Shown piece by piece: positions 35,248 to 64,000 of a DNA stretch of 64,000 nucleotides. Under the pieces are notes generated by a model, which did no database searches, had not been told where the DNA came from, and worked only from the letters and a program-made list of their open reading frames with translations. Position 1 is the stretch's first letter. Every line of letters starts with the position of its first letter. The DNA is from a virus (taxonomy: Duplodnaviria > Caudoviricetes). The DNA is taken from positions 3,502-67,501 of IMG/VR virus record IMGVR_UViG_3300008255_000137; one strand, given 5' to 3'. A program made the position numbers and the translations under genes.

Positions 35248-35649
35248 TTAGGAGGTTTGATAAGCAGTGTATTTATCGACCACATGAAGATTTATGGTGG
35301 TTATGTATTTTCCTCCGGAATAAATTCCGGTTACACTTTCAATTGCTACTTTCCATAGAGTTATATGATATCCGAAAAGGAATTCATAAGAATTATCTTC
35401 TTGCATTCCTTTCAAGGTTTCATAATCTGTTTTACTCAACATCACATTATCAATTCTGATCGTTCGGAGTTCTTCGGATATTCCCCAATCGGTTACCAGG
35501 GTGGTTCCGGATAATGAGGTGAGTTTGGTTATTAATCTGGACACATCCGGACGATAGCTTGCTTCATCAATCTCCATCAACACCCAGTTTCCTGCGGATC
35601 GAACTTCTTCACTGACGATTGAGCCTTTCATATTTATACTCCAAAGCAA
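35248..35649 (-). CDS. Distal-tail (Dit)-like protein
   Basis: Directly after TMP; small and beta-rich. Confidence 0.5.
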   Translation of the reverse strand: MLWSINMKGSIVSEEVRSAGNWVLMEIDEASYRPDVSRLITKLTSLSGTTLVTDWGISEELRTIRIDNVMLSKTDYETLKGMQEDNSYEFLFGYHITLWKVAIESVTGIYSGGKYITTINLHVVDKYTAYQTS

Positions 35650-44977: not shown

Positions 44978-44986
44978 AAGACCTCC

Positions 44987-45286: not shown

Positions 45287-45301
45287 TGCCCTACTCCTTT
45301 T

Positions 45302-45514: not shown

Positions 45515-45531
45515 CGATACGGAGTTCTGAG

Positions 45532-45777: not shown

Positions 45778-45980
45778 TCCTCTGCTTCTTTCAATTCAAA
45801 CAATGCACAACTGAAATCTTCCAGTGCGTAAAATACGCCTATGTGCCCATCGTCAGTTAAACACGTAACCCAGGCCGTTTCGCCGTTATCACTATATGGG
45901 TCGTTGACTATCTTTTTACATAGACCACCCACAGTAGATATGCTGCCTTTATACCAGTATTTACACTCTTTACAGGTCAT
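45768..45980 (-). CDS. Small Cys-rich hypothetical protein
   Basis: MTCKECKYW..C..FSCALF. Confidence 0.6.
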   Translation of the reverse strand: MTCKECKYWYKGSISTVGGLCKKIVNDPYSDNGETAWVTCLTDDGHIGVFYALEDFSCALFELKEAEDCL

Positions 45981-46147
45981 ATTTTCCTCAGTTCATTAAA
46001 AAACCAACGCCATTGCCTTGCTTTTGCAAATTCTCTAAAGTCATGTTCAGTTTTATCTTCTAAGGTTGCCCGTACCATGCGGACTTCCTCTTTTGAGATA
46101 AGCAGATTTTTAACCTTCTTAATTTTAGGTTTTTTCCACAAGTTCAT
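45977..46147 (-). CDS. Small protein (56 aa) ending in the same WFFxELRKI as the upstream gene (not in ORF track)
   Basis: MNLWKKPKI...RQWRWFFNELRKI; ATGA overlaps at both ends. Confidence 0.55.
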   Translation of the reverse strand: MNLWKKPKIKKVKNLLISKEEVRMVRATLEDKTEHDFREFAKARQWRWFFNELRKI

Positions 46148-47040
46148 ATTTTCCTCAATTCATCAAAGAACCAATCCGTTGCCGGTCCCCGCATGGGATA
46201 GTCCACATGCGGATTCGGGATTTTATTGCCGAAAAACTCGTGGGAGTAAAGCCAGAAGTGGCCGTACTTTTCGAGATTCAGCTTGATATAACGGATTAGA
46301 TTTTGCTCCGTTTTAAGATATTCGCACCAGATGCCTGGACTCACTTTCGGGGAAACTTCCGCTTTTTTCCAACTTCGCTCCCACTTCCACCACTCCCAAC
46401 AATCAATACCTTTTTTGTATGTTTCTTCCGTAAAGTGGTGCAAGTCTCCGGGGAACTGCCGCATCGTCCAGCCGTATGAATACGGCATCTGTCCATGAAT
46501 AGGAATACCGGCTTGAACCAGATATTCCAGGATCAAATAGGCATGGACTTTCCAGAGGTCTTCCAGACCATAGTTCCGGCACTGGACACACCAGCACCGC
46601 TCGGTAGGCAGCTTGCCCTTATAAAATGGGACGATTTCCGATTTATATTGCGGAGGTGTAAGATGCTCCAAATCCCAGATCAACCCGTCCAGATGATGCT
46701 CCTGGTAAAAATCAACGGCAGGAGTCACGCGGGAACTGATGTAAGCACTGGAAGTTGGACATGGAGTTTTTCTTAGATAGCGGCCATCTTGAGTTTGCCA
46801 CTGCTGCGTATCGGGAACGGTGTAGTAGATTGGGTCTCGAACCCATAAGGGCACCAGAAAGATTTTACAGGACGCTTTGTACCGAGAAATAGTTTGAACG
46901 ACGATCTCCTTGGTATCGTAATATCCAGAGCTTTTTCCCCACGGCAGATCATGAGCGCACACCAACAGCGTGTCGATGCCGGAGTCGACCAGCTTGTCGA
47001 GAAACTCAAAGTTCGGCCAGAGGATGTAGGCTGCTTTCAT
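46144..47040 (-). CDS. Glycoside hydrolase-like TIM-barrel protein (start reassigned to MKAAYIL)
   Basis: TAATG coupling and GGAG RBS; LDGLIWDLEH. Confidence 0.5.
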   Translation of the reverse strand: MKAAYILWPNFEFLDKLVDSGIDTLLVCAHDLPWGKSSGYYDTKEIVVQTISRYKASCKIFLVPLWVRDPIYYTVPDTQQWQTQDGRYLRKTPCPTSSAYISSRVTPAVDFYQEHHLDGLIWDLEHLTPPQYKSEIVPFYKGKLPTERCWCVQCRNYGLEDLWKVHAYLILEYLVQAGIPIHGQMPYSYGWTMRQFPGDLHHFTEETYKKGIDCWEWWKWERSWKKAEVSPKVSPGIWCEYLKTEQNLIRYIKLNLEKYGHFWLYSHEFFGNKIPNPHVDYPMRGPATDWFFDELRKI

Positions 47041-47351
47041 TACTCCTCCGTTATGGTCATTTGAACATCTTTTTCCCACTTATTATTCAAGCTGGTTAAA
47101 GCCTTGAACGTTATCTTGTAAGGGGAGCTTGCTTCTGAGCCTGCCTGAACCCTTATCTGAAGAGCACTTCCACTGACTGCTTTTGATCCTGATCCAAGAA
47201 CAGTGCTTGAAGCATCCGCTCCATCTACATCGGCAGCAGTCACTTCACAACTGGCCAGAACCAAAGTTTCATCTGTCTCCATGTTATTTTCAAAGTTGGC
47301 TGAAATAATCATGGACTCATAACTTTGTTTGGTAAAATTCTCAAGAGCCAT
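47040..47351 (-). CDS. Small virion adaptor-like protein following the fibre-like gene
   Basis: FTKQSYE..ISANF..QIRVQAG..YKITFKALT..WEKD; short beta-sandwich pattern typical of proteins downstream of phage fibres. Confidence 0.5.
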   Translation of the reverse strand: MALENFTKQSYESMIISANFENNMETDETLVLASCEVTAADVDGADASSTVLGSGSKAVSGSALQIRVQAGSEASSPYKITFKALTSLNNKWEKDVQMTITEE

Positions 47352-50152: not shown

Positions 50153-50518
50153 TTAGATATTATCCAAATCCGGCTCCCAGGCCGTTGAAGTAAAGAACTG
50201 CTTGCGCTGAACGCCTATCTGCTCGGACACTTTCTGATTCATCGGTCGCCATCTTTTTAAAATAAAGTCCGCTTGTTCGGCCTCGGTCAGTCGTGGTTTG
50301 TAAGGATACAGTGCCTTGAGCTTTGCCGGAATCTTAATGGCTTCGGACGAGAAAACCTTGGGAGCTTGTTCGGGTGCGTAGCCATTATCATACTGATCCC
50401 GAGTCAGTCCAAACTTCCGCCAATCCCGAAACAAGTTGTGTAGAAGCCTCAGCTTTTCTTGCATCCGATAAAGATACTCTGTTCGTTCTCTTGGTGTGTT
50501 GCAATCTGCTGGATACAT
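50153..50518 (-). CDS. Hypothetical protein
   Basis: 121-aa ORF coupled on both sides. Confidence 0.6.
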   Translation of the reverse strand: MYPADCNTPRERTEYLYRMQEKLRLLHNLFRDWRKFGLTRDQYDNGYAPEQAPKVFSSEAIKIPAKLKALYPYKPRLTEAEQADFILKRWRPMNQKVSEQIGVQRKQFFTSTAWEPDLDNI

Positions 50519-50522
50519 CTAT

Positions 50523-50831
50523 CTACCCTCCATACTCATAGTGATTGCCGTCGTTGTGTCGACCTCCCCATTTCATCCCCTGCTTTTCCCACCACTCCCC
50601 AAGGCATCGGTGACTCTCGGTGTCGGTGAGATATTCCCCGGTCTTCCGGTCGTAGAGATTCAAATCGATTGCCAACCCCTCGTGGTGCTTGCTCTGTAGG
50701 CTTCCATAGGGGCACCGCTGATCCCGGAAGACATCTCCTATCGAAATATCAAAACCAAGCTCGAAGGCCATGTCGACCAGCCTTGGAACCATCCGGCTGA
50801 AGGCTATTCTTTTTTCTTTGAGCGTTGCCAT
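50523..50831 (-). CDS. Endolysin, peptidase M15C-like
   Basis: SKHHEGLAIDLN..KWGGRHNDGNHYE (Zn ligands H, D, H). Confidence 0.85.
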   Translation of the reverse strand: MATLKEKRIAFSRMVPRLVDMAFELGFDISIGDVFRDQRCPYGSLQSKHHEGLAIDLNLYDRKTGEYLTDTESHRCLGEWWEKQGMKWGGRHNDGNHYEYGG

Positions 50832-51007
50832 GAGTGCCTTTCAATTTTGTCCAAAATCTCGTCCGTGCAGTCGATGACATTGATCTCGTCTATGTGCGGG
50901 CACCGGAGCTTGATCTCCCAGTAAAGGTCGCTTCGTCCCCGCTTCGGCAGCTTTTCGATCCTCTTTCCGCAGTGGGGACATATCTTAGCTTCCTCCGGTC
51001 CGGTCAT
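50804..51007 (-). CDS. Hypothetical protein
   Basis: CPHCG motif; overlaps neighbours. Confidence 0.4.
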   Translation of the reverse strand: MTGPEEAKICPHCGKRIEKLPKRGRSDLYWEIKLRCPHIDEINVIDCTDEILDKIERHSWQRSKKKE

Positions 51008-51287
51008 TGGACCGTCTCAACTGCTTCTTTATCTCAACGATGCTTTCCTTCATTTGCCGGACCTCCACATTCTGCGTCTCAACCTTTGCGCTCAACGCTC
51101 CGATCTGGTCGGACAATTTGCTCTGGGTCGCCAGAATGTTGCTCCCAAAGAAAAGCAGCACAGCCCCCAATCCTCCGAGGACCAGCGAGAACGTGAGCCA
51201 GGGGACCCGCTTCCGCATGTCTGCCCAGATAATGTCCAGCTTCCTATCAACGGGATCACAGGGGACCTTGCATTCTCCATCAACCAT
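50985..51287 (-). CDS. Single-TM coiled-coil protein (holin/antiholin-like)
   Basis: TM segment WLTFSLVLGGLGAVLLFFG then coiled coil; just upstream of the endolysin. Confidence 0.55.
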   Translation of the reverse strand: MVDGECKVPCDPVDRKLDIIWADMRKRVPWLTFSLVLGGLGAVLLFFGSNILATQSKLSDQIGALSAKVETQNVEVRQMKESIVEIKKQLRRSNDRTGGS

Positions 51288-52224
51288 TTTTATTCTCCTT
51301 TATCCACCACCTTTCTTTGAGTATATTTTCATCTTTTGTTTCTTCATACTCCTTTAATATTTTGTATTCGGAAGACATAAATCTTTCATCCAAATACTCA
51401 GTTTCAGGCGGTGCTTTTCTATACCTGTAGGAATAACCCAACTCACCATGAATATGCCTGAATCCTACTATATCAAACCAAGTTCCTCCTTTAACATGAA
51501 GTTGAGTATTAAATGGATTCTTTTCCGGATAAGCAATTTTCACTTTGCAACTTTCTGCCGCAAAGGCCATTCTCCCTTCACAATTTCCCATCTCCATACA
51601 GGTTCTTTCATAATTCTCAAATGGAACAAAATTCTCTTCAAAGTGTTTCATCATCTTCAACAATGCTTCTCTTTTAACCAGCATTCCTGTAGTATTTAAA
51701 ACGGGTCTGCCTCCATTCACTTCATACCCGACTGGAAGAAGATCAGCATCCCCAAGAAGATCAAACAACCGATCAAAATTTTCCGGCTTCTCAAGAATGC
51801 AATCTCCATTTGCACAATAGATGTATTCAAACCCACTTACCACAGCAATTCCAAACTTCAACAACCAGAAATAAGGATAAAGCACCCCTCCCCATGTCTG
51901 ATGATGAGGCATTACAAAAGTATCTACTTTATCCATTACGTCTCTGGGCGGCATCACATCATTGAAGGTCACTTGAGGTCTTTGTGGATCGAAATAATTG
52001 TCATAAGCAAGAACTACCCAGTATCCGGTTCTTGAGTGGGTTTCTATAGAGGCTTTTAAGAAGGCTCGATTTCCCGGGTGAGAAGTTAAAAGAATGCCTG
52101 TATTCTTTAAGGCTCTTTTCGCCCACTCATCGCATTCCATGTATCTTCTCAGCAGTTCTCGAAAATCATTTTTGTCCTGCTCAGAATATCTTGGATCATC
52201 CAGATCGCTTCTTCTAAAGCCCAT
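51280..52224 (-). CDS. Putative GT-A glycosyltransferase-like protein (NGDC motif)
   Basis: ILLTSHPG..VLAYDN..IYCANGDCILEK; paralog of the next gene. Confidence 0.55.
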   Translation of the reverse strand: MGFRRSDLDDPRYSEQDKNDFRELLRRYMECDEWAKRALKNTGILLTSHPGNRAFLKASIETHSRTGYWVVLAYDNYFDPQRPQVTFNDVMPPRDVMDKVDTFVMPHHQTWGGVLYPYFWLLKFGIAVVSGFEYIYCANGDCILEKPENFDRLFDLLGDADLLPVGYEVNGGRPVLNTTGMLVKREALLKMMKHFEENFVPFENYERTCMEMGNCEGRMAFAAESCKVKIAYPEKNPFNTQLHVKGGTWFDIVGFRHIHGELGYSYRYRKAPPETEYLDERFMSSEYKILKEYEETKDENILKERWWIKENKNG

Positions 52225-53251
52225 TTTTCTCTCTTTCTACAAATTCATTGTATCTCTCAAGTGGGTAATAGAATCTATCCCACCAACTATCCTCTGACTG
52301 ATCCCACAGTTGATAAATGTATCTTCTGTCTCCTGTTTCATAATATTTTTTCAAGGGGTCCTGTCCGCCAGTGGAAAGATATTTTGAGTATCTCATATCA
52401 AAGAACTTTCTTTCTACAGGCTCCCTTCTTTCAATGGCGGCGGTCAAGTACTCTGCTGAAAGATTTCTATATCCCACCAATTTCTTCCAAGTACTATTTT
52501 GATTGTATCTTGAATAGTGATCCACACTATTTATATCGGGCTCCATGGGCTGCTCCGGAGCCACAGTTTCCTTTAAATCTAAAACTCTAATGGCCTCATC
52601 CAAAATAATTTCAGGACTATGAAAAGACATCACGGATACGTTATAAAAATTGCAAAAGTATTCCACTATTTTAAAAAGGGCTTCTGCCTTAAAAAGAATG
52701 GCACAGGTGTGAATAGTATTCCTCTCTCTGGAAACGGACATCAAATCCCCATCTCCGAGTACATCAATTAAATCTTGTATTCCTTCCGATTTCTCCCAAA
52801 TACAATCTCCATTTACAGTAAAGATGTATTCCAGATTAGAAAAACTGGATAACGCTCCAGCCGCATAAATTATATCAAAAAACCAACCTACCCTTTTTTC
52901 ATTGTCATAGGTAGGGTGCTTAAACACCCATGAATGAGGAAGAAGAAAAACATCTGGAGTCGGAAAAATATCTTTCAACTCCGTATTTTTTATATTCCAG
53001 TATTTAAGAGGATTATCATAAGCACAAATCACAAAGGCCCCCGATAATCGATAATTAGTTAAGGTTGCTTTTAAGAAAGGAAGATGTCCATGCCAGGAAG
53101 TCACAATGATTGCAACTTTCTTCTCAAAAGGAACACAATTATAATTCAAACTCAAATCCCCCCAATTTGGTCTCAAATCAAATCTGCTCGCATTAGGAGT
53201 ATGATTGAATGGAAGAATACCACTTATTTTCTTTTCTTCTTCGGAGATCAT
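52214..53251 (-). CDS. Putative GT-A glycosyltransferase-like protein (NGDC motif)
   Basis: IIVTSWHGH..ICAYDN..IFTVNGDCIWEK. Confidence 0.55.
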   Translation of the reverse strand: MISEEEKKISGILPFNHTPNASRFDLRPNWGDLSLNYNCVPFEKKVAIIVTSWHGHLPFLKATLTNYRLSGAFVICAYDNPLKYWNIKNTELKDIFPTPDVFLLPHSWVFKHPTYDNEKRVGWFFDIIYAAGALSSFSNLEYIFTVNGDCIWEKSEGIQDLIDVLGDGDLMSVSRERNTIHTCAILFKAEALFKIVEYFCNFYNVSVMSFHSPEIILDEAIRVLDLKETVAPEQPMEPDINSVDHYSRYNQNSTWKKLVGYRNLSAEYLTAAIERREPVERKFFDMRYSKYLSTGGQDPLKKYYETGDRRYIYQLWDQSEDSWWDRFYYPLERYNEFVEREKNGL

Positions 53252-53553
53252 TTCTTAACCTTCTGAATTAAAGTATCATAATTTTTCTTTGCTTCCTCCA
53301 ATTGTACTTCCAGTTTCCTGTATTCTTCTTTATCATCTAAATTGAGCCATTTAGAACAATCCCTGTCTCCATTTCTATCTTCAAGTTGCCACATTCTTTG
53401 ATATACCTGAGCAATTGAATCAGAAAGAATCTTCATATCAAGTCTCATCTCAATATGCTTAACCTCCTCAGCCTTAGCAAAGTAGTTTATTGCCCCAACT
53501 ATTGAACCAGCCAAAGCTATAACTAAAATAACGAACTGAAGTTTTTCTTTCAT
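53248..53553 (-). CDS. N-terminal TM plus coiled-coil protein
   Basis: LQFVILVIALAGSIVGAINYF. Confidence 0.5.
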   Translation of the reverse strand: MKEKLQFVILVIALAGSIVGAINYFAKAEEVKHIEMRLDMKILSDSIAQVYQRMWQLEDRNGDRDCSKWLNLDDKEEYRKLEVQLEEAKKNYDTLIQKVKK

Positions 53554-53605
53554 TTAAAATTTCCCATCAAAATATTTTCTGATAGTGAATGAAGATTTAA
53601 CTTCT

Positions 53606-54241
53606 TCATGACTTATACCCTGGTTGATCCAACAACTTCTTTCTTATCATTGTTAATCCCACATTCCATGCCGAGTGTGGAAAAGTAAAAACATTCCATA
53701 AGTCTTCTCTTCCTTCTAAAAACTTTCTCAAACGATAAACATCTCCACATCGACTCGGTCCTAAATACTCATCATTCAGTGGCATTGTGTCATGAAGAAA
53801 AATATAACCACCAGGAACAGTCAATTCAAAAGCATTATCAAAATCCCTTTTCACTTGAAGAAATTCATGTTCACCATCAATAAAAGTCAAAGCAATAGGA
53901 GTGAATTTTATATTCTTGAAAAAATTATCGGATGAATTACAAATAATTACTGCATCATCATTAAAATATCCTCCTACTGTTTTACAATTCTCAATAACAC
54001 TTCTCTGGATATCACAATGATATACTTTTCGATGATATTTTTTAGCAAGCCAGGAAAGATAAATTGAGGTTTCACAGACTCCAACTTCAATAATATCTCC
54101 CTTAATATAATGAAGAACAAAGTCAGAAAGCATTCCGAATAATCCCCATCTCTCCCATTTGATGTTCTCAGAATATGGAAAGGACTTCCAAGAAGAAGGA
54201 TTTACATAATCCATCAATTCTCTTGATCCGGGGTGCTCCAC
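53606..54241 (-). CDS. Class I SAM O-methyltransferase (Methyltransf_24/TylF-like)
   Basis: IIEVGVCE, FIDGEH, IFLHD. Confidence 0.85.
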   Translation of the reverse strand: MEHPGSRELMDYVNPSSWKSFPYSENIKWERWGLFGMLSDFVLHYIKGDIIEVGVCETSIYLSWLAKKYHRKVYHCDIQRSVIENCKTVGGYFNDDAVIICNSSDNFFKNIKFTPIALTFIDGEHEFLQVKRDFDNAFELTVPGGYIFLHDTMPLNDEYLGPSRCGDVYRLRKFLEGREDLWNVFTFPHSAWNVGLTMIRKKLLDQPGYKS

Positions 54242-54242
54242 T

Positions 54243-54830
54243 TTATTCTCCTTTCTTTATTAAAACCGTCAATGAAGGAAAATTATAGTAGGTTCCATAT
54301 TGATAAAATCGATTCACTATTACATTGGTCTCAATCGCTTTTTTGATGGAAGACTTGTTGTACTTTTTCATCCACTCAATATTGTCTCTTTCTTCTGACC
54401 CACCTTCAAATAAAATCAATCCTGACATTCTTAAAATAGGATGCCACTTATCAATCATAAAATTAAAAATATCTCCCGTGTTGCTTAAGTCTGCATGAAG
54501 TTGACATATACTTTTCTTCTCATAATCTTCATGAACTTTAAAGGCGTCTGCTTTTTTTAAAGAAACATACTTCAGCAGTCCTTTGCTATTTAAAATATCC
54601 TTTACCTTTTCTTCATTCCCATGGTTGTGCGGATAATCCTCCCACAGATCATAACAACAAAGATGGCCACGATGAGAATGAAAAATATGATTGCGCTCAA
54701 GGCCCAAAGCTGTCCAAAATGCTGAATATCCATCCAGTACTCCTAACTCCACGCAAGAGTGGGGCTTAAAAGAAACCACCGTGTTTCTAAAAATAGGCCC
54801 ATAATTATTTTGTAAATAAGAGGATCTCAA
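54243..54830 (-). CDS. Class I SAM methyltransferase
   Basis: CVELGVLDGYS, LHADLSN. Confidence 0.75.
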   Translation of the reverse strand: MRSSYLQNNYGPIFRNTVVSFKPHSCVELGVLDGYSAFWTALGLERNHIFHSHRGHLCCYDLWEDYPHNHGNEEKVKDILNSKGLLKYVSLKKADAFKVHEDYEKKSICQLHADLSNTGDIFNFMIDKWHPILRMSGLILFEGGSEERDNIEWMKKYNKSSIKKAIETNVIVNRFYQYGTYYNFPSLTVLIKKGE

Positions 54831-55348
54831 ATCTCTTTTCCATTCTCTATCTTGAAACAGTCCTTCAAGTTTAAATTCAAGTTTCTATAGAAAACTATCT
54901 TTTCTCCAAAGGCCAATTTTAGCTTTTCTTGATAATCAAAAGAATCGACTGCTGCAATATGATCCCAATCTTTAACAAGCAAAGCCAGAACTACATCAGT
55001 TCCTCTTCCTACATTTGAAATATAAATGGAATCATAAAGCTCTGATTTGGCCTCTATTTCTTGCATTCGCTCAATTCTTTTCTTCGATTCTTCAATAATT
55101 TTATCAATAGAAAAATTTACATTTCCTATCAGTCTTCTTGGAATTGGATTATTTCTGTAAGCATCAAATCCTATATACCAGCATTTGAGTATTTCCAGAT
55201 CCCGATAATCTGTGCACCAAAAGTTCTTTCCAGAACCCTTACAGATTTGATTCTCTAAAGGAAAAACTGGATAGTAATTGATACTCTTGATAGTGTTTGC
55301 TACAAAAGAATTTTTTATCAAAAGTATTTCCCACTCTTTAAAATTCAC
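54827..55348 (-). CDS. Hypothetical protein in the glycan cluster
   Basis: 173-aa ORF coupled on both sides; VGRGTD..AVD is weakly Rossmann-like. Confidence 0.5.
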   Translation of the reverse strand: MNFKEWEILLIKNSFVANTIKSINYYPVFPLENQICKGSGKNFWCTDYRDLEILKCWYIGFDAYRNNPIPRRLIGNVNFSIDKIIEESKKRIERMQEIEAKSELYDSIYISNVGRGTDVVLALLVKDWDHIAAVDSFDYQEKLKLAFGEKIVFYRNLNLNLKDCFKIENGKEI

Positions 55349-56445
55349 TACCAGCCTTCCTTAATTGAATTTACAATATACTCTCTATCTTCTTTTGTTA
55401 ACCACCAGCCTACGGGAATACAAATCATACTTTTTACTATTCTATCAGTCATAGGAAGGCTTCTTTCAAATTCCCTTACGCAAGAGTGTTTATCATTTCT
55501 TTCATGAACCCTTGACACCATTATTCCTTTCTCTCCCATCTTTCGGGCAAATCCTGTCCGATCCTCCACAAAAAGAGTGTAAAGCCAATAAGAGGATTTT
55601 CTATTATCCCTCCTTTGGGTCAATCGTATTCCAGGAACAGATCTTAATTCTCTGTTATAAAATTCAGCATTGCTTCTGGCTATTTCAATATTTCTGTCCA
55701 CTTCTTCCATGTTCTTCAAACCAATTGTGGCACAAACATCATTCATGTGATACTTGTACCCATACTGATAAATATCTTCCTCACAGCGCATATCTTTTCT
55801 CGGACCTTCCCGATCAATTCCATACCATCGAAGAAGTTTTCCTTCATCATAAACTTTTCTTTCTTTGCAAAATAAAGCTCCACCATCCACTGAATTCAAA
55901 TTTTTTATCGCCTGAAAACTGAACATACAAAAATCTGAATACTTGCAATCTCCGATAATAGAATTCCGGTAAGTAGAACCATAAGCATGGGCGGCATCCT
56001 CGATTATAACGACACCTCTTTCCTTACAAATTGAGTGAATTTTCTCCATATCGCAAGGATATCCGCCCCAGTGCATTACTATCACTGCCTTTGTTCTTCC
56101 ACAAATATTCTGCTCAATCTCATAAGGACTTATATTCAAATCTTCTTCTATATCTGTCCAAACTATTTTTGCTCCTTGGTAAAGAACCGGCCAGTTGGTA
56201 GCAGTACAGGTTAATGGAGTACAAAGTACCTCATCCCCCGGCCCTACTCCAGCCAATCTCAATGCAAGATGAATTCCATGAGTCCCGGCAGACAAAGAAA
56301 GACAATATGGATTTTTAACTTTGTCAGATAAAGCCCCTTCAAACTCTATCACCTTTTCTCCCTGGCCAATCCATCCTGAATGAAGAACAGATAAAAGATC
56401 CTTATCCACATTCTTACTCATAAAGACTTTAAACAATGGAATCAT
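55348..56445 (-). CDS. DegT/DnrJ/EryC1/StrS PLP-dependent sugar aminotransferase
   Basis: SGWIGQG, SAGTHGIHLAL, IEDAAHA, FSFQAIKNL, DGG. Confidence 0.93.
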   Translation of the reverse strand: MIPLFKVFMSKNVDKDLLSVLHSGWIGQGEKVIEFEGALSDKVKNPYCLSLSAGTHGIHLALRLAGVGPGDEVLCTPLTCTATNWPVLYQGAKIVWTDIEEDLNISPYEIEQNICGRTKAVIVMHWGGYPCDMEKIHSICKERGVVIIEDAAHAYGSTYRNSIIGDCKYSDFCMFSFQAIKNLNSVDGGALFCKERKVYDEGKLLRWYGIDREGPRKDMRCEEDIYQYGYKYHMNDVCATIGLKNMEEVDRNIEIARSNAEFYNRELRSVPGIRLTQRRDNRKSSYWLYTLFVEDRTGFARKMGEKGIMVSRVHERNDKHSCVREFERSLPMTDRIVKSMICIPVGWWLTKEDREYIVNSIKEGW

Positions 56446-57074
56446 TTCAACCTCCTTAAATATCCGGAAGGGTTAAATGTCATTCCAAGTCTTTCCCTAT
56501 AAGGGTCAACTTCAAAACTATCATTCACAAAAAGAAAATCTTGAACGGCTTCATAAGGACCTTTATCATACTCCCATTCAACGGGATGCCCACTTACATG
56601 AGTGTCTTCCACAATCAAATAATTTCCCTGGGAAACATATTGACTATAAATTTCCAATTCTCTCACTACATGATTATAAGAATGAAAGGAATCTAAAATG
56701 ACCATGGTACTAAAATTTTTACAGTATTTCTCAACTTCACTTACTACATCAAAGTCAATACTTGATCCAATTATTTGAATAATAGAATCCCACCATGGAA
56801 ACCACATGGAAGAAAAGTCCACCTTCTTCTCTTTATCAATTGTGACAACTCTTCCTTGATTATCAAACAACTTTAAGATGGAAGCATAAAACAGAGCGGA
56901 ACCTCCCTGACCGGTTCCAGTCTCAATAATTACATCGGGCTCTGTTTCCCAAATTATCTCCTGAATTATCATGGCATCATTCGGGAGTTTCCACATCGGA
57001 ACACCCATCCAGGTTATGGTTTCCCACAAACGACTCTTCTCAAAATAATTGTGGTATTCATCCGATATTTTCAT
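56442..57074 (-). CDS. CmcI-family (rhamnosyl O-methyltransferase-like) protein
   Basis: WMGVPMWKLPND..IIETGTGQGGSALF..ILDSFH..LIVED. Confidence 0.88.
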   Translation of the reverse strand: MKISDEYHNYFEKSRLWETITWMGVPMWKLPNDAMIIQEIIWETEPDVIIETGTGQGGSALFYASILKLFDNQGRVVTIDKEKKVDFSSMWFPWWDSIIQIIGSSIDFDVVSEVEKYCKNFSTMVILDSFHSYNHVVRELEIYSQYVSQGNYLIVEDTHVSGHPVEWEYDKGPYEAVQDFLFVNDSFEVDPYRERLGMTFNPSGYLRRLK

Positions 57075-59959
57075 GATAGAATTTCCTCAATCCATTTATC
57101 GGGTGAATACTCCCTTCTTGCGTGCTCTTTTGCGCTCTCCCCCATTCGAGCCCTTAACTCTGGATTTTGTAATTCTTCCAAAGCAAAGATATAATCTTTT
57201 ACTGAATTACAAAGAAAACCTGAAGAAGGAATCACTCTGTCTTTTGCGCCTGAATGATTGTCTGCCACCACCGGAAGACCCACCGACTGCGCCTCCATGA
57301 TGACTTTGGGACCTTGATCTTCGTATCCTTCGGGAAGACAATACCAGAAACAATTTCCCAAGGACAGAAACTCATCTACTGAGGGATCATTTCTCTTATG
57401 ACAAACAACTTTAAATCGCTCCACAAACTCATTGGATAGAAAAGTTGGGGAAGGCATCAATCTCAAGGAGGCTTCATCTTCTATGCTATCAAATACCTCC
57501 TGAAGAATTTCATTGAAGTTCTTTGGATACTTAGAATCTCCTTGACTGCTGTGTCTCACAATTTTAAGGTTTCCAGAATAATCAACTTTCCTATCAAAGA
57601 ACTTGGAAAGATCCATTGGGGGAGCCATAGAACGGGTCTTTGCTAAAGGAATTCTCTCCTTCAAAGTATTCTCCAAGGAGGAGTTGAGAAATAAATATTT
57701 GTCCCAATCTCTTGTCCACTTGGCTTTATCTGTTCCAATGCCCCCCATTCTAAAATTCACTACCATCACTTTTCTGGTGGCTTTCAATTCAGAAAAGACT
57801 TCTTCTATCTCTGGTTTAGTGAACTCCCATACCCAATCATTCACATACAAAACCAAAAGATCGGTTTCCTCTTTTATTTTTTTCAAGTCATTCAGGAATA
57901 TAGTATTACTATTCCCTTTGTTTCTGAAGGTTCCACAAGGAGCCTGTTTTGGAGAAATGTATTCTGTATTCCATCCTCTTTTATCAAACTCATTCAATAA
58001 CCAAGTGACTGATCCTTCCGCTCCACCTTCTCCTCTTCCATTAAATACTATCCTGACTCTGTTTGAATTAGGGGCTTTAACTGGAGGGGTGCAAGCACCG
58101 ACTTCTGTCTTTCTTTTCCAGAAGGCGGTTCGGTGCCCTCCCTGAGAAATCTTTTCATAACTTTCTTTTAAATGCTTTTCTGCCCACTGTAATTCTGTGG
58201 GACGGCCGGCATCATGGATCAAAACTCTATCAAAATTCTTTGCTATGATGAAGGAGGGCTCCCGATTTTTTCCTCCACCAGGACCATCAACAAAAACCAG
58301 GTCTGCCTTTTCAGGAATAAATATCTTCTTTCCATCCCACAAACGAATATCTAAGGAAGGATTCATTTTCTTAAATCGATCAATATCTTCCTGTCGAGTT
58401 TCATAAGGAACAACTTTCACCCCAAATGAATCAAATAGCAAAGTAGAAAGGCCCACACCGAATTCACAGATTGATTTAACTTCCTCATTTTTGATTATCT
58501 GTTTAATGTATTCCCAGTCTTTATCAGTAATGGATGATCCTCCCCAGTCCATACCAAAGGGCCTCTCGGGTTCTTTTTCTTGAACAAATACCTTCGGCGG
58601 AGTCTTTACTACATTAATTAATTTGGATCGTCCAGAGGATTTATCAAATTCAATGGACAATCTTCCTCCATTATAGTATTTTAAGATTGCCTGAACTACA
58701 TCCTCAGAAGAAATGATGTCCGCACAAAGAGGAACTTTTTGACCGGATTCATCCAAAGTAATTCCGTTAGGACATCCATTGATATCACACTTCCAACAGG
58801 CGGTTGGGGCATCTTGATTTGTGATTGTGCAAGGCAAGCAGCCATCAGTCGCCAAGTATTGCTGTCCAGGATATCTGGTAAACCACACGGGCTCTCTTGC
58901 TCCACTTATTACCACGCATGGTTTATTAAATACGGCTGCAAGATGCATCTGGAAGGAAACAAGTCCGGCAGATCCTTCGCAGTAATTAAACAGATTCAAC
59001 AAATCCCTAAATCCAGTATTTCTGTCTTCTGTCTTTCCGATAAAATCAATCACATTCCTTCCTGAAAGTTTTGGGTGCTTATGTCCTCTTGATCCTATCT
59101 GGACGAACTTTATTTGAGGCAGCTTTTCAACTACCTCTTTCCATTTCCCGAATTCAAAAGTCTTTGCTGTCCAGTCCCCTTTTTCGCCTGCGGTAATCAA
59201 CCAATACGGGGGCTCAATAATTGGAGGACGATTGTATTCTTCTTCGGTCATATAAAGATCCCCACGGATGGGACCTTGCTCAATTTTTATTCCAAGAATG
59301 TTCTCTATTGAAATTCTAAAAGCATTGGCAAAATGATTATCTGATCTGTTGGAAGCATTGGTTGCTTTTCCAGGGCCAATATACAATTTAACCGCTCCGT
59401 CTTTCTCAATGGCTTCCTTTACTGCCCTTCTATTGTATTCCACCATCTCTGAATCAGAGGGTTTTCTTTCTTCCTTTTTAAACGACAGAGGGTCAATAAT
59501 GTCTGTCCAAGTTTCTCTATCGATGTTTGGATTAAAATCCCACATGTGAGAAACGGTGGATTGAACCTGAACTTTTATATTCGGAAATTGTCTTTTAAAA
59601 TCCCGAATAGCGCAGGTGAACATTATAATGTCCCCGATTGCCTGTCGATTATGAAAGACAATTCTCTTTGGTAAAAGAACTTCCTTTTCTTCTTTTTCTT
59701 CATTTACAAAACTGGCTCCAGCCTCATGATAAATCTTTTCAAGAATTTCCTCCCTGACTTCTCTGTTTGACGGAAAAAGAATTGAAGTATGGGCATGATC
59801 CTGTTTTCCACAGCGTACTGCTACAATAGAATCATGGTATTCCAGCCCCTCCAAATTCGGATCTTTCTCAAGAATAGAGATGTTTTCCCCCATGTGAAAA
59901 CGTAAATTCTTAACTTTCTCTTTCATCAGTCTCATGACTTTTTGATTCATCATTTCCAA
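57071..59959 (-). CDS. Multidomain GT9 (heptosyltransferase-like) + methyltransferase + GT4 glycosyltransferase
   Basis: AIGDIIM..KTFEFGKW..MHLAAVFNKP; CEFGVGLST..VFVDG; GGAE..EDQGPKVIMEAQSVGLPVV. Confidence 0.85.
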   Translation of the reverse strand: MEMMNQKVMRLMKEKVKNLRFHMGENISILEKDPNLEGLEYHDSIVAVRCGKQDHAHTSILFPSNREVREEILEKIYHEAGASFVNEEKEEKEVLLPKRIVFHNRQAIGDIIMFTCAIRDFKRQFPNIKVQVQSTVSHMWDFNPNIDRETWTDIIDPLSFKKEERKPSDSEMVEYNRRAVKEAIEKDGAVKLYIGPGKATNASNRSDNHFANAFRISIENILGIKIEQGPIRGDLYMTEEEYNRPPIIEPPYWLITAGEKGDWTAKTFEFGKWKEVVEKLPQIKFVQIGSRGHKHPKLSGRNVIDFIGKTEDRNTGFRDLLNLFNYCEGSAGLVSFQMHLAAVFNKPCVVISGAREPVWFTRYPGQQYLATDGCLPCTITNQDAPTACWKCDINGCPNGITLDESGQKVPLCADIISSEDVVQAILKYYNGGRLSIEFDKSSGRSKLINVVKTPPKVFVQEKEPERPFGMDWGGSSITDKDWEYIKQIIKNEEVKSICEFGVGLSTLLFDSFGVKVVPYETRQEDIDRFKKMNPSLDIRLWDGKKIFIPEKADLVFVDGPGGGKNREPSFIIAKNFDRVLIHDAGRPTELQWAEKHLKESYEKISQGGHRTAFWKRKTEVGACTPPVKAPNSNRVRIVFNGRGEGGAEGSVTWLLNEFDKRGWNTEYISPKQAPCGTFRNKGNSNTIFLNDLKKIKEETDLLVLYVNDWVWEFTKPEIEEVFSELKATRKVMVVNFRMGGIGTDKAKWTRDWDKYLFLNSSLENTLKERIPLAKTRSMAPPMDLSKFFDRKVDYSGNLKIVRHSSQGDSKYPKNFNEILQEVFDSIEDEASLRLMPSPTFLSNEFVERFKVVCHKRNDPSVDEFLSLGNCFWYCLPEGYEDQGPKVIMEAQSVGLPVVADNHSGAKDRVIPSSGFLCNSVKDYIFALEELQNPELRARMGESAKEHARREYSPDKWIEEILS

Positions 59960-61201
59960 TCAACCTTTCTCCAATCTCCACAGACACCTGGGGGATCGGT
60001 CTTCAGTTTGTCCAAGATAAGTAGATTTGCAATCCAGGGATTCAATCCCCTTCAGCATTTCCTTCACATGACCAGTTTCAAACTCTTCCGGAGCATTATG
60101 ACTTTCTATATAGCACCTCCTCCATTTGATGTTTTTAAGAATAACAAACATATTCCCATAAATATGCTTGTAAATAGAAAGAGCAAATACCACATCAATC
60201 TCTTTATGACAAAAGTAATTCCTGATCTCTGAAATCAAAGAAGTTACCCTGTTCAAATTTCTTTGAATAAAGTTAATCGGAAGTTTATTGTAATGGGCCA
60301 AATCTCTTGCACAATCAATGTAGTCTTTTTCGTTGTCTATTCCAAGAAGTTTGCTTGCTCCTCTCCTTCTTGCTTCCACGAGAATTGAACCAAGATTGCA
60401 TCCTAAATCAAGAATGGACAGACCAGTCATATTTCTTTCCACATCCATTTTTTCATATCGATACAAGGTGTCCCTTGATCCAGACTTATACTTTCCATCA
60501 ATAAAGTAAGTCTGATAATTTGCCCTTCTCTGCTTATGAGGAAACTGTGTCAGATTAAAAATTCTATTTTCCAGTTCCTCCTTATTTAATAAAGGAATTT
60601 CTGTATCAGAAAGAGAATGAGGGAGACTCCATTTAGGCATATCCCATATTGTTCTTCGGACATCTACCAAATATCCATTCACAATATTCCCAGGTTTGAA
60701 GTAATCATTGTATGCTCCAATGGTCATCTCAATTTTAGACTCATTCAGAAATTTATCAAAAGATTGTTTATTAAAATCTCCCTTTGAAGAAAGTTTTCTT
60801 GCCGAAACCATTTCATAACCATACTTTCCAATAACATCACAGTGCTCAGTTCCATAAGGAAAATATGAAGTAAATTTTCTTATATAAATCATATCCCCTA
60901 TCGGTGGAGACAGATTCCTTTCTGAAAGTAATTTCATCATTTTGTATTCAAGAAGAATTGATCGAAGAGATTCTTTTTCAAATCCTTCCGAGTTCTGATT
61001 AAAACTTCCTTTAATAATTTCTTCCTGATTTCTCCCTTTTTCCCAATCTCTGTAGGATTCAATTTTTCCATGATGACTCCAGAGTATCTTTATTCCTATT
61101 TCTGGAATCCACACCGAGTGCTTCCCAATTAAGCAGGAATAAGAAAGTCCATCAATACGAATTTCATTCTCAGAAAGGAAAGCGGTATCAAATACTTTCA
61201 T
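59960..61201 (-). CDS. Kinase-like + class I methyltransferase fusion (start reassigned to MKVFD)
   Basis: ATGA overlap at 61198-61201; GIKIL..LLEYKMM..DYFKPGNIVNGYLVD; LDLGCNLG..LLGID. Confidence 0.7.
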   Translation of the reverse strand: MKVFDTAFLSENEIRIDGLSYSCLIGKHSVWIPEIGIKILWSHHGKIESYRDWEKGRNQEEIIKGSFNQNSEGFEKESLRSILLEYKMMKLLSERNLSPPIGDMIYIRKFTSYFPYGTEHCDVIGKYGYEMVSARKLSSKGDFNKQSFDKFLNESKIEMTIGAYNDYFKPGNIVNGYLVDVRRTIWDMPKWSLPHSLSDTEIPLLNKEELENRIFNLTQFPHKQRRANYQTYFIDGKYKSGSRDTLYRYEKMDVERNMTGLSILDLGCNLGSILVEARRRGASKLLGIDNEKDYIDCARDLAHYNKLPINFIQRNLNRVTSLISEIRNYFCHKEIDVVFALSIYKHIYGNMFVILKNIKWRRCYIESHNAPEEFETGHVKEMLKGIESLDCKSTYLGQTEDRSPRCLWRLEKG

Positions 61202-62178
61202 TGTAAAAGCCTTTCTACACTCAATTCCATTTTGGCGTCTTTTCCAGACCATATATCAATTGCATACTGAACTCTTCTTTGAGTGCTGTGATACTTTTGT
61301 CCAAACCAGAAGGCTTTCTGACGAATACATTTTCCCATATCTGGATTATCAATGGAGTAAAATTTATAGAGTTCTTGAAAATGCTCAAAGGACTGATAGC
61401 CCAAGTAGTGATCCCCATCCTTAAAAAAGTAATCCATGTTTGGATGTTTGTTATGAAAATACAAAGCTCCCGCACCCGTATATTGAAACGGACGCACATC
61501 ATTATAAAGATGAATGGACTCCCCCATCTGAAAGCCAATTATTGCCTTAGAGGAGGAAGATACTTCAGCGGTCAAAAATCTGGAATTCCCATAAACTGGA
61601 TCGGGATAAACTCTTACATTGTATTTTGTCTTTAACTTCTCGACAAATTGGGATCGCTCATAATGATAGGGATCTTCCGGGTTCTTTGAAATTCCTCCAG
61701 TAAACACCACATCCCCCTCAAACTCTTTCATCTCTTCCGAGATATCCGACTGATACAAACAGGGGTATGGCCAATGATAGCAAGGAACTTTCCACCATTT
61801 CTCAGACCATTTTTTTCCTTCCCCATTATTTATCAAGACTGCATCCACAATATCATTTATGGGTTGAGGATATCGGGGCTCTGTTCGGGCATCCCCCATG
61901 TGGTAGAAAATAAAGGTTCCCAATTTCTTTCGGCACCATCTCAGAAGATCAAATACTTCTTCTCGATTATGGGGTTTTCTATTAAAAATACAATGAGCAA
62001 AAATTATGTGGGGCTTGAAAAAATCAATCTGCTCCCTCACACTAAGAAGAGGTTGGGATAACAAAGAAACCGGACGGAACCAGGCTCCACAACGAATAGC
62101 CCCTTCCAAAACACCGTATGTAAAATAACTGTAATATCCGGTGTAATCTCCCAGTCCCACAATTCGAGTCTGTTTCAT
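61198..62178 (-). CDS. GT-B glycosyltransferase (CgeB/Glyco_trans_1_2-like)
   Basis: VVFTGG..RSQFVEKL..NDVRPFQYTGAG..KYHSTQRRV. Confidence 0.8.
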   Translation of the reverse strand: MKQTRIVGLGDYTGYYSYFTYGVLEGAIRCGAWFRPVSLLSQPLLSVREQIDFFKPHIIFAHCIFNRKPHNREEVFDLLRWCRKKLGTFIFYHMGDARTEPRYPQPINDIVDAVLINNGEGKKWSEKWWKVPCYHWPYPCLYQSDISEEMKEFEGDVVFTGGISKNPEDPYHYERSQFVEKLKTKYNVRVYPDPVYGNSRFLTAEVSSSSKAIIGFQMGESIHLYNDVRPFQYTGAGALYFHNKHPNMDYFFKDGDHYLGYQSFEHFQELYKFYSIDNPDMGKCIRQKAFWFGQKYHSTQRRVQYAIDIWSGKDAKMELSVERLLQ

Positions 62179-62708
62179 TTTAGAATCATTACTCCCATTC
62201 CATTATACTGGTCTTTCAAGAATGACTCCAAAGAAACCTCTTTCACCTCACTTTCAGAAGTGTGTTTTTTCATTGAATAGTAAGATTTATTTTCATAATT
62301 TTTTATCAAATCAATTACTTCTTCCGGTTTATAGTGCCAGGGTGCCGTATGAACTTTTCCATTGGGGGTGGTGAATACTATTCCTTTACAACTTACGCTA
62401 ATCATATTTTGAATAAAAACTTTGGGATCATAATTGACATGCTCAATCACATCAAAAGCAGTTACATAATCCCAACTCTTTCCTTTTTTAAAATCAACCA
62501 AATCTCTTGAGTCAACAATAAAATCCACTTGCTTCATCAAGGCTCGATTAGCATCAGAAGTAAAAACCTGATTATTTCCTAAAGATAGTCTTTCCTTTGA
62601 GAGTCCTCTTCCCGAGCCTATATCCAAAATCGAACTCCCTTTAATAAATTCTCCAAAAAACTCCTGCCACGCGAATTGAAGGTCTGCTGGGGCTTCTTTT
62701 GAATACAT
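62175..62708 (-). CDS. Class I SAM methyltransferase
   Basis: ILDIGSGRG, VTAFDVIEHV, FTTPN. Confidence 0.88.
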   Translation of the reverse strand: MYSKEAPADLQFAWQEFFGEFIKGSSILDIGSGRGLSKERLSLGNNQVFTSDANRALMKQVDFIVDSRDLVDFKKGKSWDYVTAFDVIEHVNYDPKVFIQNMISVSCKGIVFTTPNGKVHTAPWHYKPEEVIDLIKNYENKSYYSMKKHTSESEVKEVSLESFLKDQYNGMGVMILK

Positions 62709-63391
62709 TAAAATTTTCTCTCCCCTTCTCTCACAGAATTCTGAAAGCCAAGATGTTTCACATAAGCATGAGTTCCTATTCTCCCTAAAAAGTAAGACCC
62801 TACATTTAATATCATCCAGTCTGCTGAAGGCATCTTTTTTCCTCTTTTAACAAGAGGATTTATAAACCAAACAGGATTCAAATTTCTTGGAGGAGTTCTC
62901 CAGAACTTCATTATAAAATTTCTTCTCCATAAAGCTGGGGTGAATGCCCAGTGTGGATTTGTAGTCAGACATACTCCTGATTTTTCCACTTCTTTCTTTT
63001 TCCATCCATGACGTTCTGAGGCAATCTCTCTCTTATGAAAAGCAATTTGATTTACATCCGAATTTTCCTCCATTATTTTAACCATCAGATCCAAATCAAT
63101 TTCCTTGATGACTTCCCAGTCATCCTCAATATTAAAAACATAATCAGTGGCCGTTCTTCTCAATAGAAAATCAATGGAGGGACCTTGATTTATTGGAGGA
63201 TTGTGCATGAATACTTCATCAAAATTCTCTTTGGCTATCCGAATGCATTCCTTGGAAGCCTCTTTATTTAAAACATCCTCATGAAACAAAACTCGAAGTC
63301 TTCCACTATACTTCACAAACTTCTTAAAGGGCTCAAGCGAAGCCTGTAACAGATCAGGGCGAGAAGCAGAAGTGCGAATTACATCAATCAT
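62708..63391 (-). CDS. GT2-like (GT-A) glycosyltransferase
   Basis: VIRTSASRPDLL..FNIEDDW (DxD-like). Confidence 0.8.
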   Translation of the reverse strand: MIDVIRTSASRPDLLQASLEPFKKFVKYSGRLRVLFHEDVLNKEASKECIRIAKENFDEVFMHNPPINQGPSIDFLLRRTATDYVFNIEDDWEVIKEIDLDLMVKIMEENSDVNQIAFHKREIASERHGWKKKEVEKSGVCLTTNPHWAFTPALWRRNFIMKFWRTPPRNLNPVWFINPLVKRGKKMPSADWMILNVGSYFLGRIGTHAYVKHLGFQNSVREGERKF

Positions 63392-64000
63392 TTTAATTCC
63401 TCTAAATTATAATCCGGATTTCTCTGCCCCTTACCCTTTCCAATATTATCAACATACCAACCTTCTCCAACAGGGCCAAAGTAATAGGTCCCTAAATTCT
63501 TCTTGACCCAATCTGCGGACTTTCTTTCCGGGGCATCCTTCTGAAGAATACTGTTAATATGCCAATGATGATTGTGATCAGTAAAACAAACCCATCTTTC
63601 TTTAATCCAAGAAATCCTCCATACTGAGGGAAGGTATCTCCAGTGAGCAGAAACAGTCAACTTATAACCATTTCTTTCCTCTTCCACTTCTTCCTTTTTC
63701 CAGTATTCCAAATCAAATCCATTGGATCTTTTACCCAAAGTAATTTGATTGATATCTAAATTATTATCCATCACATAAAAGATTTCATTCAGATCCAATT
63801 TCTCAATCAGGGAGTGGTCATCCACCCAGTAAATAAAATAATCTCCTCTTGCTCTTTTCAGACTTTTGGTAATTGAATAACCCTGACCATTAGCGGGCTC
63901 GGCAATAAGAACATCAATCAATCCGGATTCATCAAATATTTTCAAACACTCAAGGGATTTCTTCTTTTGTAAAACGGCCTCATGAAAAATCCAAAATATC
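63388..64000 (-). CDS. GT2-like glycosyltransferase, 5'-truncated by the window edge (paralog of 62708..63391)
   Basis: Frame stays open to the edge (IFWIFHEAVLQKKKSLECL, aligning with LFHEDVLNKEASKECI); YWVDDH. Confidence 0.8.
   Translation of the reverse strand, partial: IFWIFHEAVLQKKKSLECLKIFDESGLIDVLIAEPANGQGYSITKSLKRARGDYFIYWVDDHSLIEKLDLNEIFYVMDNNLDINQITLGKRSNGFDLEYWKKEEVEEERNGYKLTVSAHWRYLPSVWRISWIKERWVCFTDHNHHWHINSILQKDAPERKSADWVKKNLGTYYFGPVGEGWYVDNIGKGKGQRNPDYNLEELK

Follow-up and report, generated by a model that had tools for sequence, protein, structure and literature searches.

The 64,000-nucleotide stretch analysed here, which we refer to as the window, covers bases 3502–67501 of a single 67,501-bp viral record (IMGVR_UViG_3300008255_000137) and belongs to an uncultured phage known only from aquifer and groundwater metagenomes. 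It carries an operon of 14 genes, c01 to c14, for glycosyltransferases, methyltransferases and a sugar aminotransferase, together with three genes for proteins that contain long, almost pure serine (poly-Ser) tracts (Table 1). We consider it probable that this operon serves to O-glycosylate, in the cytoplasm, poly-Ser tracts of proteins associated with the virion, because its transferases are soluble and of three different folds, sugar-tailoring enzymes accompany them, cassettes of this type are tightly adjacent to poly-Ser genes across unrelated phage backbones and lie within structural modules, and one of the enzymes contains a domain that resembles serine heptosyltransferases.

The coupling of cassette and tracts recurs in other viruses. 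With an alignment of homologues of c13 we collected 33 viral loci, and a single-protein scan contributed one more, giving 34 cassette loci from 29 lineages. Their recurring core comprises eight genes (c06, c07, c08, c09, c10, c11, c13 and c14), found in 16 to 30 lineages each; c01–c05 and c12 have no homologue in any of the 34 loci, and the structural genes are mostly unshared between loci. Under a strict rule (at least 70% serine over 40 residues in an open reading frame (ORF) of at least 80 aa), a poly-Ser ORF lies within 10 kb in 23 of the cassette loci and in none of 70 control loci (1.16 Mb), which were found through their DegT aminotransferase gene and are without c13/c14 (Fisher p = 4e-15). 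Whole records add five loci (L006, L007, L008, L027 and L031) and bring the count to 28 of 34 loci and 23 of 29 lineages. The poly-Ser ORFs near the cassette are all on its strand, and in six loci (L012, L013, L014, L025, L018 and L021) the poly-Ser gene begins 0–40 bp past c14, with most others within 1.5 kb. By their non-serine parts, the 48 poly-Ser ORFs fall into 22 families, unrelated outside the tract, and a single Pfam domain, Laminin_G_3 (L005), was detected among the family representatives. Tracts in these relatives reach lengths above 1,100 residues, and some are C-terminal, as in P0003 of the phage studied here.

In the L009 group, the major capsid protein is followed in order by a poly-Ser protein, a small ORF, (dehydratase), DegT, c06 to c13 and c14, a further small ORF, one or two poly-Ser proteins and an SU10-type adaptor; the cassette is thus located between the major capsid protein and the adaptor, i.e., inside the head-neck module. 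For a lineage-matched comparison, relatives were fetched by the adaptor protein of this group, and those with at least 45% identity and at least 3 kb of upstream sequence were retained (n = 12). Poly-Ser is found just upstream of the adaptor in all 12; the c13/c14 cassette is present in eight of them, c06-like remnants in one (L268) and a different cassette in two (L269 and L274), and for L273 the upstream sequence of only about 3 kb is too short to judge. In L269 (167–5967) and L274 (2261–7457), the same site beside the poly-Ser gene is taken by tightly packed genes for a radical S-adenosylmethionine (SAM)/SPASM enzyme, a nucleoside diphosphate (NDP)-sugar epimerase/dehydratase, a Methyltransf_24 protein and proteins of 320–333 aa; those of L269, which replace c13/c14, have no profile similarity to the c13/c14 family. 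Thirteen distant relatives, with 24–32% adaptor identity, have neither tracts nor any cassette gene. The swap fits exchangeable sugar cassettes that serve a constant acceptor, a situation for which the O-antigen loci swapped in bacteria offer a parallel.

Some of the collected loci have further peculiarities. A sulfotransferase-like gene lies inside the cassette in five lineages (e.g., L002:8002–8703, Sulfotransfer_3, 1.4e-5), whose sequence suggests sulfated glycans in some phages. The cassette-bearing record G008 (132 kb, L136–L140) is of jumbo size and has eight ORFs with serine tracts of 58–381 residues on the cassette's strand. Two DegT homologues, L006:5139–7352 and L008:5975–8206, are 737–743 aa long and split after query residues 1–221 by an insertion of about 370 aa, which may be an intein. 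A looser poly-Ser rule was dropped, as it counted collagen-like (GSS/GTS)n fibres (L099 and L100) and antisense frames (L065 and L125). The fibres belong to unrelated phages with DegT and a Methyltransf_24-like gene (L099:18654–21170 and L100, minus strand); they encompass 838 aa, about 250 of them in collagen-like (GSS/GTS)n repeats that can be mistaken for poly-Ser.

The three poly-Ser proteins of the phage, P0001, P0002 and P0003, have four tracts of 49–692 aa, and these lie exactly where a preliminary description of the window had placed them; the about 960 serines it had estimated come down to 813, in 968 tract residues. The tracts use a mix of all six serine codons, and selection therefore acts on the protein and not on a DNA repeat. 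Fragments of the P0001 gene and the operon were identically assembled in four other groundwater runs, so that the tract is no assembly artefact; no RNA data set is listed as containing the stretch. In low-depth contigs from another groundwater run, the serine tract of P0001 differs by an in-frame deletion of 3 bases and an insertion of 3 bases (positions 48911 and 49532; single contigs, hence weak), which hints at length variation between strains. Two of the four tracts are C-terminal, with no domain after them. Behind its 692-residue tract, P0001 ends with EFYRSEVTK repeated three times in tandem, plus a fourth, degenerate copy (47363–47470, minus strand); this repeat may be an anchoring or recognition motif. 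The domain at aa 488–649 of P0002 recurs in poly-Ser proteins of L022 and L026, and a scan of viral contigs with the N-terminal part of P0003 returned no relatives. Pfam searches assigned none of the three to a glycoside hydrolase, carbohydrate esterase, polysaccharide lyase or carbohydrate-binding module family, and no Sec, transporter or cell-wall-anchor family was detected in them or in the 14 operon proteins.

The preliminary description took all three for virion proteins, which is supported for P0002 and P0003 by their position after the tape-measure gene and more weakly for P0001. It is conceivable, if improbable, that the poly-Ser proteins are glycosylated but operate outside the particle, as mucin-like decoys, matrix or adhesins released at lysis. 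The P0001 gene comes immediately behind the lysis genes, no structural domain was recognised in its product, the poly-Ser proteins consist mostly of orphan domains, and there is no virion proteome to place them. On the other hand, P0002 and P0003 come second and third when genes are counted from the tape measure, and in L009-type loci the poly-Ser genes have the major capsid protein on one side and the head-tail adaptor on the other, in line with a location on the particle.

The operon itself encompasses 14 consecutive minus-strand ORFs that fill the window from 64000 down to 51280. Of its 13 junctions, seven are 4-bp ATGA/TTGA overlaps, while the others overlap by 0–11 bp and one is a 52-bp gap, in agreement with the at least 13 coupled genes described before. 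Of the about six methyltransferase domains reported earlier, six were recovered, in c03, the C-terminal half of c05, the middle of c06 (weak), c07, c10 and c11, and so was the DegT aminotransferase, c08. Six of the roughly seven glycosyltransferase (GT) domains have support (c01, weakly, c04, two in c06, c13 and c14); the second GT2 does not, as c02 has no match. The kinase-like domain was not recovered either: no kinase match was found for the N-terminal half of c05, and only its methyltransferase half has matches, including a weak one to the WbdD methyltransferase (E = 0.003). Searches in Pfam, NCBIfam, PDB sequences and the ESM Atlas gave no match for c02, c09 and the N-terminal half of c05. 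The NCBIfam match of c07 (rhamnosyl O-methyltransferase, 1.3e-42) and the best one of c08 (PseC, 5.4e-68) are both below the respective cut-offs. Of the complex, O-methylated, amino-sugar-containing and possibly phospho-capped glycan proposed in the preliminary description, O-methylation and an amino sugar are reasonable to expect from the CmcI, Methyltransf_24 and DegT families, and the phospho-cap finds no support. A hydropathy scan of the operon proteins found membrane segments in none except the 101-aa c12, and Pfam revealed no flippase, polymerase or undecaprenyl phosphate/lipid-carrier transferase among them.

With six methyltransferase domains at hand, and with c09 and several other genes of unknown function, the serine side chains could in principle be modified in another way, by direct O-methylation or a small non-glycan adduct, and bear no oligosaccharide. 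Against this, glycosyltransferase folds, four to six in number, make up the conserved core together with a sugar aminotransferase, and five lineages have a gene for an NDP-sugar 4,6-dehydratase ahead of DegT; we regard such a chemistry as very improbable.

The core enzyme c06 is a fusion of two transferases with a methyltransferase, for which a structure model was built from 20 homologues (predicted local distance difference test (pLDDT) score of 81). Residues 630–962 form a GT4 domain of the GT-B fold, with Z-scores of about 25 to HepE, PimA and TarM (VIA-align of the model); the Z-score to SdgB (7vfm) is 22.8, against 25.8 for the best GT4, so that the likeness to SdgB is generic. Residues 92–434 have a GT9 fold (3tov_B, Z 21.9, root-mean-square deviation of 3.4 Å over 271 aligned residues); in the structural search with the c06 model, the best 50 matches listed were taken up by GT4 proteins. 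Across the 20 homologues, Pfam detects GT1 in 19 and GT9 in two (best 1.6e-6). Between the two transferase domains, at about aa 470–620, comparison of profiles with the PDB points weakly to a SAM-methyltransferase-like segment. The invariant GD and K..W motifs of c06 align with the heptosyltransferase WaaF (1psw), at an E-value not significant by itself, and near the end of the GT9-like C-lobe (aa 377–412) lies a cluster of six cysteines, CxxC-x5..7-CxxC-x4-C-x~15-C, four of which are invariant in the 20 homologues. A scan of viral contigs with c06 alone, as a single-protein query, found no relatives.

The closest functional analogues of the GT9-like domain are the autotransporter serine heptosyltransferases. 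TibC, a serine heptosyltransferase with a GT-B domain and a four-cysteine iron finger, hyperglycosylates many serines of one protein (PMC4358343). Both TibC/AAH and c06 have a GT-B domain of the heptosyltransferase (GT9/WaaC) type, and the cysteine cluster of c06 lies, in a purely positional comparison, where TibC has the finger formed by Cys339/342/358/370. TibC has an N-terminal β-barrel, a thumb and a dodecameric assembly and acts on a β-helix; the c06 domain shares its chain with a methyltransferase and a GT4, and its candidate acceptor is disordered poly-Ser. No sequence match between the two was found, as a profile of the c06 GT9-like domain did not retrieve a TibC chain from the PDB at E-values up to 10.

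The signature genes of the cassette are c13 and c14. An AlphaFold2 model of c13, built from 32 homologues (pLDDT 91), has a GT-A fold, and its top matches in Foldseek, the glycosyltransferase domain of LH3, COLGALT1 and alpha-3GalT, at low template modelling scores of 0.36–0.39, are protein- and glycan-directed GT-A enzymes. The two paralogues have invariant D, NxD, E and D positions in common, and each has private invariant residues as well, so that both look active at the sequence level. A natural c13–c14 fusion exists in P0101. The homologues of c13 form 97 clusters, all metagenomic, and the c13/c14 family as a whole makes up 86 clusters among 1.84 billion protein representatives. In 185,579 prokaryotic genomes, one peptide pattern, of low sensitivity and thus no proof of absence from cells, retrieved only one 2.9-kb contig. 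Homologues of c13 are filed under a Woesearchaeota metagenome-assembled genome (L142, 2.9-kb contig) and a Patescibacteria one (P0016, 22-kb contig); these are probably binned viral fragments and may point to the host group. Judged from the model and these searches, c13/c14 represent a predicted new GT-A family seen almost only in viral contigs.

While gene content, folds, enzyme solubility and the genomic coupling of cassette and tracts are established, we infer as follows what the acceptor is, which sugars are used, which enzyme primes the glycan, how the steps succeed one another and that the products are part of the particle. The operon would be a soluble cytoplasmic cassette for building and tailoring glycans, whose substrates would be the poly-Ser tracts of the phage's own late proteins, probably parts of the virion. 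The DegT enzyme c08 would make an amino sugar from an NDP-4-keto-sugar, and one transferase would place the first sugar on the serine hydroxyls, the best candidate being the GT9-like domain of c06, because its closest functional analogues are the heptosyltransferases described above. The other transferases would then extend the glycan, the methyltransferases would cap its hydroxyls, and the private genes c01–c05 may add further steps in this phage. Modified in this way, the tracts would give tail-tip and fibre-like proteins brushes or stalks that resemble mucins.

Several points weigh against O-glycosylation of the tracts by the cassette. We scanned viral contigs for poly-Ser with the codon pattern AGY, five TCN, AGY and obtained 79 new loci, 22 with strict poly-Ser ORFs; among the latter, L184 is a known cassette record (it holds L029), and the known cassette locus L013 was found again but outside the 22. 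Of 588 pattern matches from a scan with the tract itself, none passed tblastn, and the WSN codon pattern, applied to whole records, was rejected, as it also matches the antisense of poly-Asp/Glu tracts. A c13/c14 homologue is absent from all 20 other poly-Ser whole records tested, five of which are at least 92% complete, and among these five the GT9-like domain of c06 occurs in only one. Poly-Ser therefore does not need this cassette: the tracts are much commoner in viral contigs than the cassette, and the rule is that the cassette implies tracts, not the converse. The co-occurrence across viral metagenomes anticipated by the preliminary description thus holds from cassette to tracts and fails from tracts to cassette, and its view of the tracts as dedicated scaffolds goes beyond the evidence. 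Further, 1) the 70 control loci are not habitat-matched, 2) five cassette records are without poly-Ser, two of them fragments of 5–9 kb and three an estimated 36–63% complete, 3) the lineage-matched pattern probably reflects a single evolutionary gain and not 12 independent events, 4) for none of these phages is there an observed glycan, a mass shift or a virion proteome, 5) genes for nucleotide-sugar activation and for a dehydratase that would supply DegT are absent from this genome, 6) the virion membership of P0001 is unproven, with capsid, portal and terminase unrecognised, and 7) a glycosyltransferase may be soluble and still use a lipid carrier in the membrane.

The absence of the cassette from the other poly-Ser records, the unmatched habitats of the controls and the five records without poly-Ser would also suit tracts that are unmodified, flexible hydrophilic spacers, with a cassette acting elsewhere, for instance on a host envelope glycan, and a pairing brought about by shared habitat or host group and by late operons. 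Polyserine linkers of carbohydrases were reportedly treated by Howard et al. in 2004. In secreted enzymes of Saccharophagus, Teredinibacter and Cellvibrio, such linkers are about 80% serine, average 39–44 residues, lie between catalytic and binding modules and have no known glycosylation (PMC2699552). The phage tracts resemble them as runs of about 80% serine that join domains, some of them lectin-like (Laminin_G_3 in L005), but they are 2 to 17 times the average linker length in this phage (over 1,100 residues in relatives), can be C-terminal, as two are here with nothing after them, and travel with a glycosylation cassette. Spacers would also leave unexplained that a poly-Ser gene abuts c14 in many lineages with tracts on 22 unrelated protein families, that the cassette is devoid of membrane, flippase and lipid-carrier enzymes, and that relatives replace it by another sugar cassette at the same site beside poly-Ser. 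We therefore give the spacer explanation only a small share of the probability and favour glycosylation of the tracts. Taken together, what the preliminary description observed is partly confirmed and its interpretation partly supported, with glycosylation of the tracts remaining something we infer.

The reading frame of c01 is free of stops to the end of the contig and continues for 74 bases into the record start (G000:C1:1-74), and the match of this truncated ORF to GT2 sets in near its residue 32 at profile position 58, as expected if the other contig end supplies 25 residues. Because this frame crosses the contig junction, we take the genome to be circular or permuted, and on a circular map the operon is directly downstream of the replication genes and not, as described before, about 40 kb away from them: upstream of it lie genes for a clamp-loader ATPase, a UvsY-like protein and a gp32-like protein and one 213-aa ORF. 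All long ORFs of the window are on the minus strand, and the operon continues unbroken into a three-gene lysis cassette with an M15 peptidase, the 929-aa poly-Ser gene and tail genes for a tail-completion protein, a DUF3383 protein and the tape-measure protein, followed by the two further poly-Ser genes; the same-strand lead into lysis and tail genes noted before is thus confirmed. Neither Pfam nor PHROGs recognised a terminase, portal or major capsid protein in the late region or elsewhere in the window (including 42711–47351). The head module is either very divergent or among genes outside the scans. Neither capsid nor tail-tube genes were recognised in the window; the proposed acceptor tracts are carried by other proteins.

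A position next to gp32 and UvsY would also be compatible with hypermodification of the phage DNA with methylated amino sugars, and the radical SAM enzymes and a dATP/dGTP diphosphohydrolase-like gene elsewhere in the genome do suggest DNA modification. We nevertheless regard this as the least probable of the alternatives, with hardly any weight: the constant neighbour across the 34 loci is the poly-Ser gene and not replication genes, the cassette lies inside the head-neck module in one clade, and glycan pathways are where CmcI/Methyltransf_24 sugar O-methyltransferases and a GT9/GT4 fusion are typically found. In other phages, DNA glycosyltransferases add simpler sugars. The diphosphohydrolase N-terminal-domain protein and three radical SAM proteins are encoded in the replication operon (11694–12494, 7893–10383 and 12688–13422, minus strand), and their sequences suggest a separate DNA-modification pathway. 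The family A DNA polymerase (547–4206, minus strand) is fused to an N-terminal uracil-DNA-glycosylase-like domain, and its sequence is split by an intein that carries an HNH endonuclease (Intein_splicing and HNH_3 in Pfam).

Table 1. Operon, poly-Ser and associated late genes in window coordinates; values after family names are E-values, lineage and locus counts refer to the 34 cassette loci, PLP stands for pyridoxal phosphate and TM for transmembrane segment.
Feature	Position	Strand	Description	Evidence or context
c01	63388..64000, crossing junction into record 1-74	-	GT2-like glycosyltransferase, accessory	Pfam Glycos_transf_2 E=1.8e-4, below Pfam cut-off
c02	62708..63391	-	227 aa, accessory	no Pfam, NCBIfam or PDB match
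c03	62175..62708	-	class I SAM methyltransferase, accessory	Methyltransf_23, 6.7e-8
c04	61198..62178	-	CgeB-like glycosyltransferase, accessory	Glyco_trans_1_2, 1.1e-9
c05	59960..61201	-	C-terminal half SAM methyltransferase, accessory	Methyltransf_25, 2.3e-6; ATGA-coupled start at 61201
c06	57071..59959	-	962 aa, core three-domain GT9-like/methyltransferase/GT4 enzyme	in 22 lineages
c07	56442..57074	-	CmcI/rhamnosyl-type sugar O-methyltransferase, core	RMNT_CmcI, 2.5e-55; in 16 lineages
c08	55348..56445	-	DegT/PseC-type PLP sugar aminotransferase, core	DegT_DnrJ_EryC1, 1.9e-81; in 25 lineages
c09	54827..55348	-	173 aa, core	in 19 lineages; no Pfam, NCBIfam, PDB or Atlas lead
c10	54243..54830	-	Methyltransf_24 O-methyltransferase, core	1.9e-10; in 24 lineages
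c11	53606..54241	-	Methyltransf_24 O-methyltransferase, core	7e-10; in 23 lineages
c12	53248..53553	-	101 aa, accessory	one N-terminal hydrophobic segment, aa 3-28 (hydropathy scan); not conserved in 34 cassette loci
c13	52214..53251	-	divergent GT-A glycosyltransferase, core signature gene	family without Pfam model; model and Foldseek
c14	51280..52224	-	c13 paralogue (about 25-28% identity), core	in 34/34 loci, always last cassette gene
Lysis cassette	50153..51287	-	100-aa TM/coiled-coil protein (TM aa 28-54), M15 peptidase (50523-50831; Peptidase_M15_4, 1.4e-8), 121-aa protein	between glycosylation operon and first poly-Ser gene
P0001	47363..50152	-	929 aa: 200-aa N-terminal domain, 692-aa poly-Ser tract aa 202-893, short C-terminal repeat	first poly-Ser gene after lysis cassette
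Tape-measure protein	35634..38183	-	tail length tape measure	PHROG tail length tape-measure families down to 6e-43; positional anchor for P0002 and P0003
P0002	33019..35232	-	737 aa, poly-Ser aa 349-485 (137) and 689-737 (49)	second gene after tape measure
P0003	30433..33015	-	860 aa, C-terminal poly-Ser tail aa 771-860 (90)	third gene after tape measure

The proposed system is related in kind to mycobacteriophage virion glycosylation, serine-rich repeat adhesins, TibC-type heptosyltransferases and polyserine linkers, but full-text literature searches returned no description of poly-Ser or serine-rich phage proteins paired with a glycosylation cassette. Giant viruses (Mimivirus and relatives) encode multi-gene pathways, with their own nucleotide-sugar synthesis, for unusual amino and methylated sugars on their fibrils. 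The phage cassette would be similar in being a virus-encoded multi-gene pathway for amino and methylated sugars on particle appendages; giant viruses, however, are viruses of eukaryotes, and we know of no poly-Ser acceptors or shared signature genes in them. In Gram-positive bacteria, serine-rich repeat glycoproteins (GspB, Fap1 and SraP) are glycosylated by GtfA/GtfB and further Gtfs, and SD-repeats by SdgA/SdgB. Common to these and to the phage are a long serine-rich acceptor encoded beside soluble cytoplasmic glycosyltransferases and, in c06, a GT4-fold domain; in contrast to the serine-rich repeat systems, the phage has no accessory Sec (SecA2/SecY2) export, cell-wall anchor or SxSx-type repeat, and its tracts are almost pure serine. 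For mycobacteriophages, virion glycosylation was reportedly described by Freeman et al. in 2023 (Cell Host Microbe 31:1216). According to the summary in PMC12619734, Che8 and others encode one to three transferases, and the glycans are attached at the C-terminal ends of capsid and tail-tube subunits; PMC12582341 also refers to this glycosylation. As there, the phage studied here encodes glycosyltransferases near structural genes, its own virion proteins are the proposed acceptors and shielding is plausible; it differs in a cassette of 8–14 genes that includes methyltransferases, an aminotransferase and GT-A enzymes of a family for which Pfam has no model, in being known from genes alone and in candidate acceptors that are long poly-Ser tracts (49–692 residues) on other proteins.

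More broadly, the c13/c14 family and the GT9-methyltransferase-GT4 fusion may constitute a portable module that turns poly-Ser tracts into methylated amino-sugar "mucins" on particles, and poly-Ser may be a general, exchangeable acceptor tag of environmental phages that is served by interchangeable cassettes; for this wider proposal we see the chances as evenly balanced. If the tracts do carry glycans, many uncultured phages would bear mucin-like, heavily methylated glycan brushes, hundreds of residues long, on their tails and fibres, a layer of virion chemistry that is invisible to sequence annotation. It would influence adsorption, how readily particles stick to biofilms or host surface layers, how well they withstand proteases and how host defences recognise them. 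The soluble enzymes would be a compact set for coating a simple encoded tag, of interest for glyco-engineering, and the system would provide both a new GT-A family and a phage counterpart of bacterial serine-rich adhesins. The asymmetry found here, with the cassette nearly always accompanied by tracts, tracts often without the cassette and cassettes swapped at one site, is in its own right a testable statement on the modular evolution of virion glycosylation.

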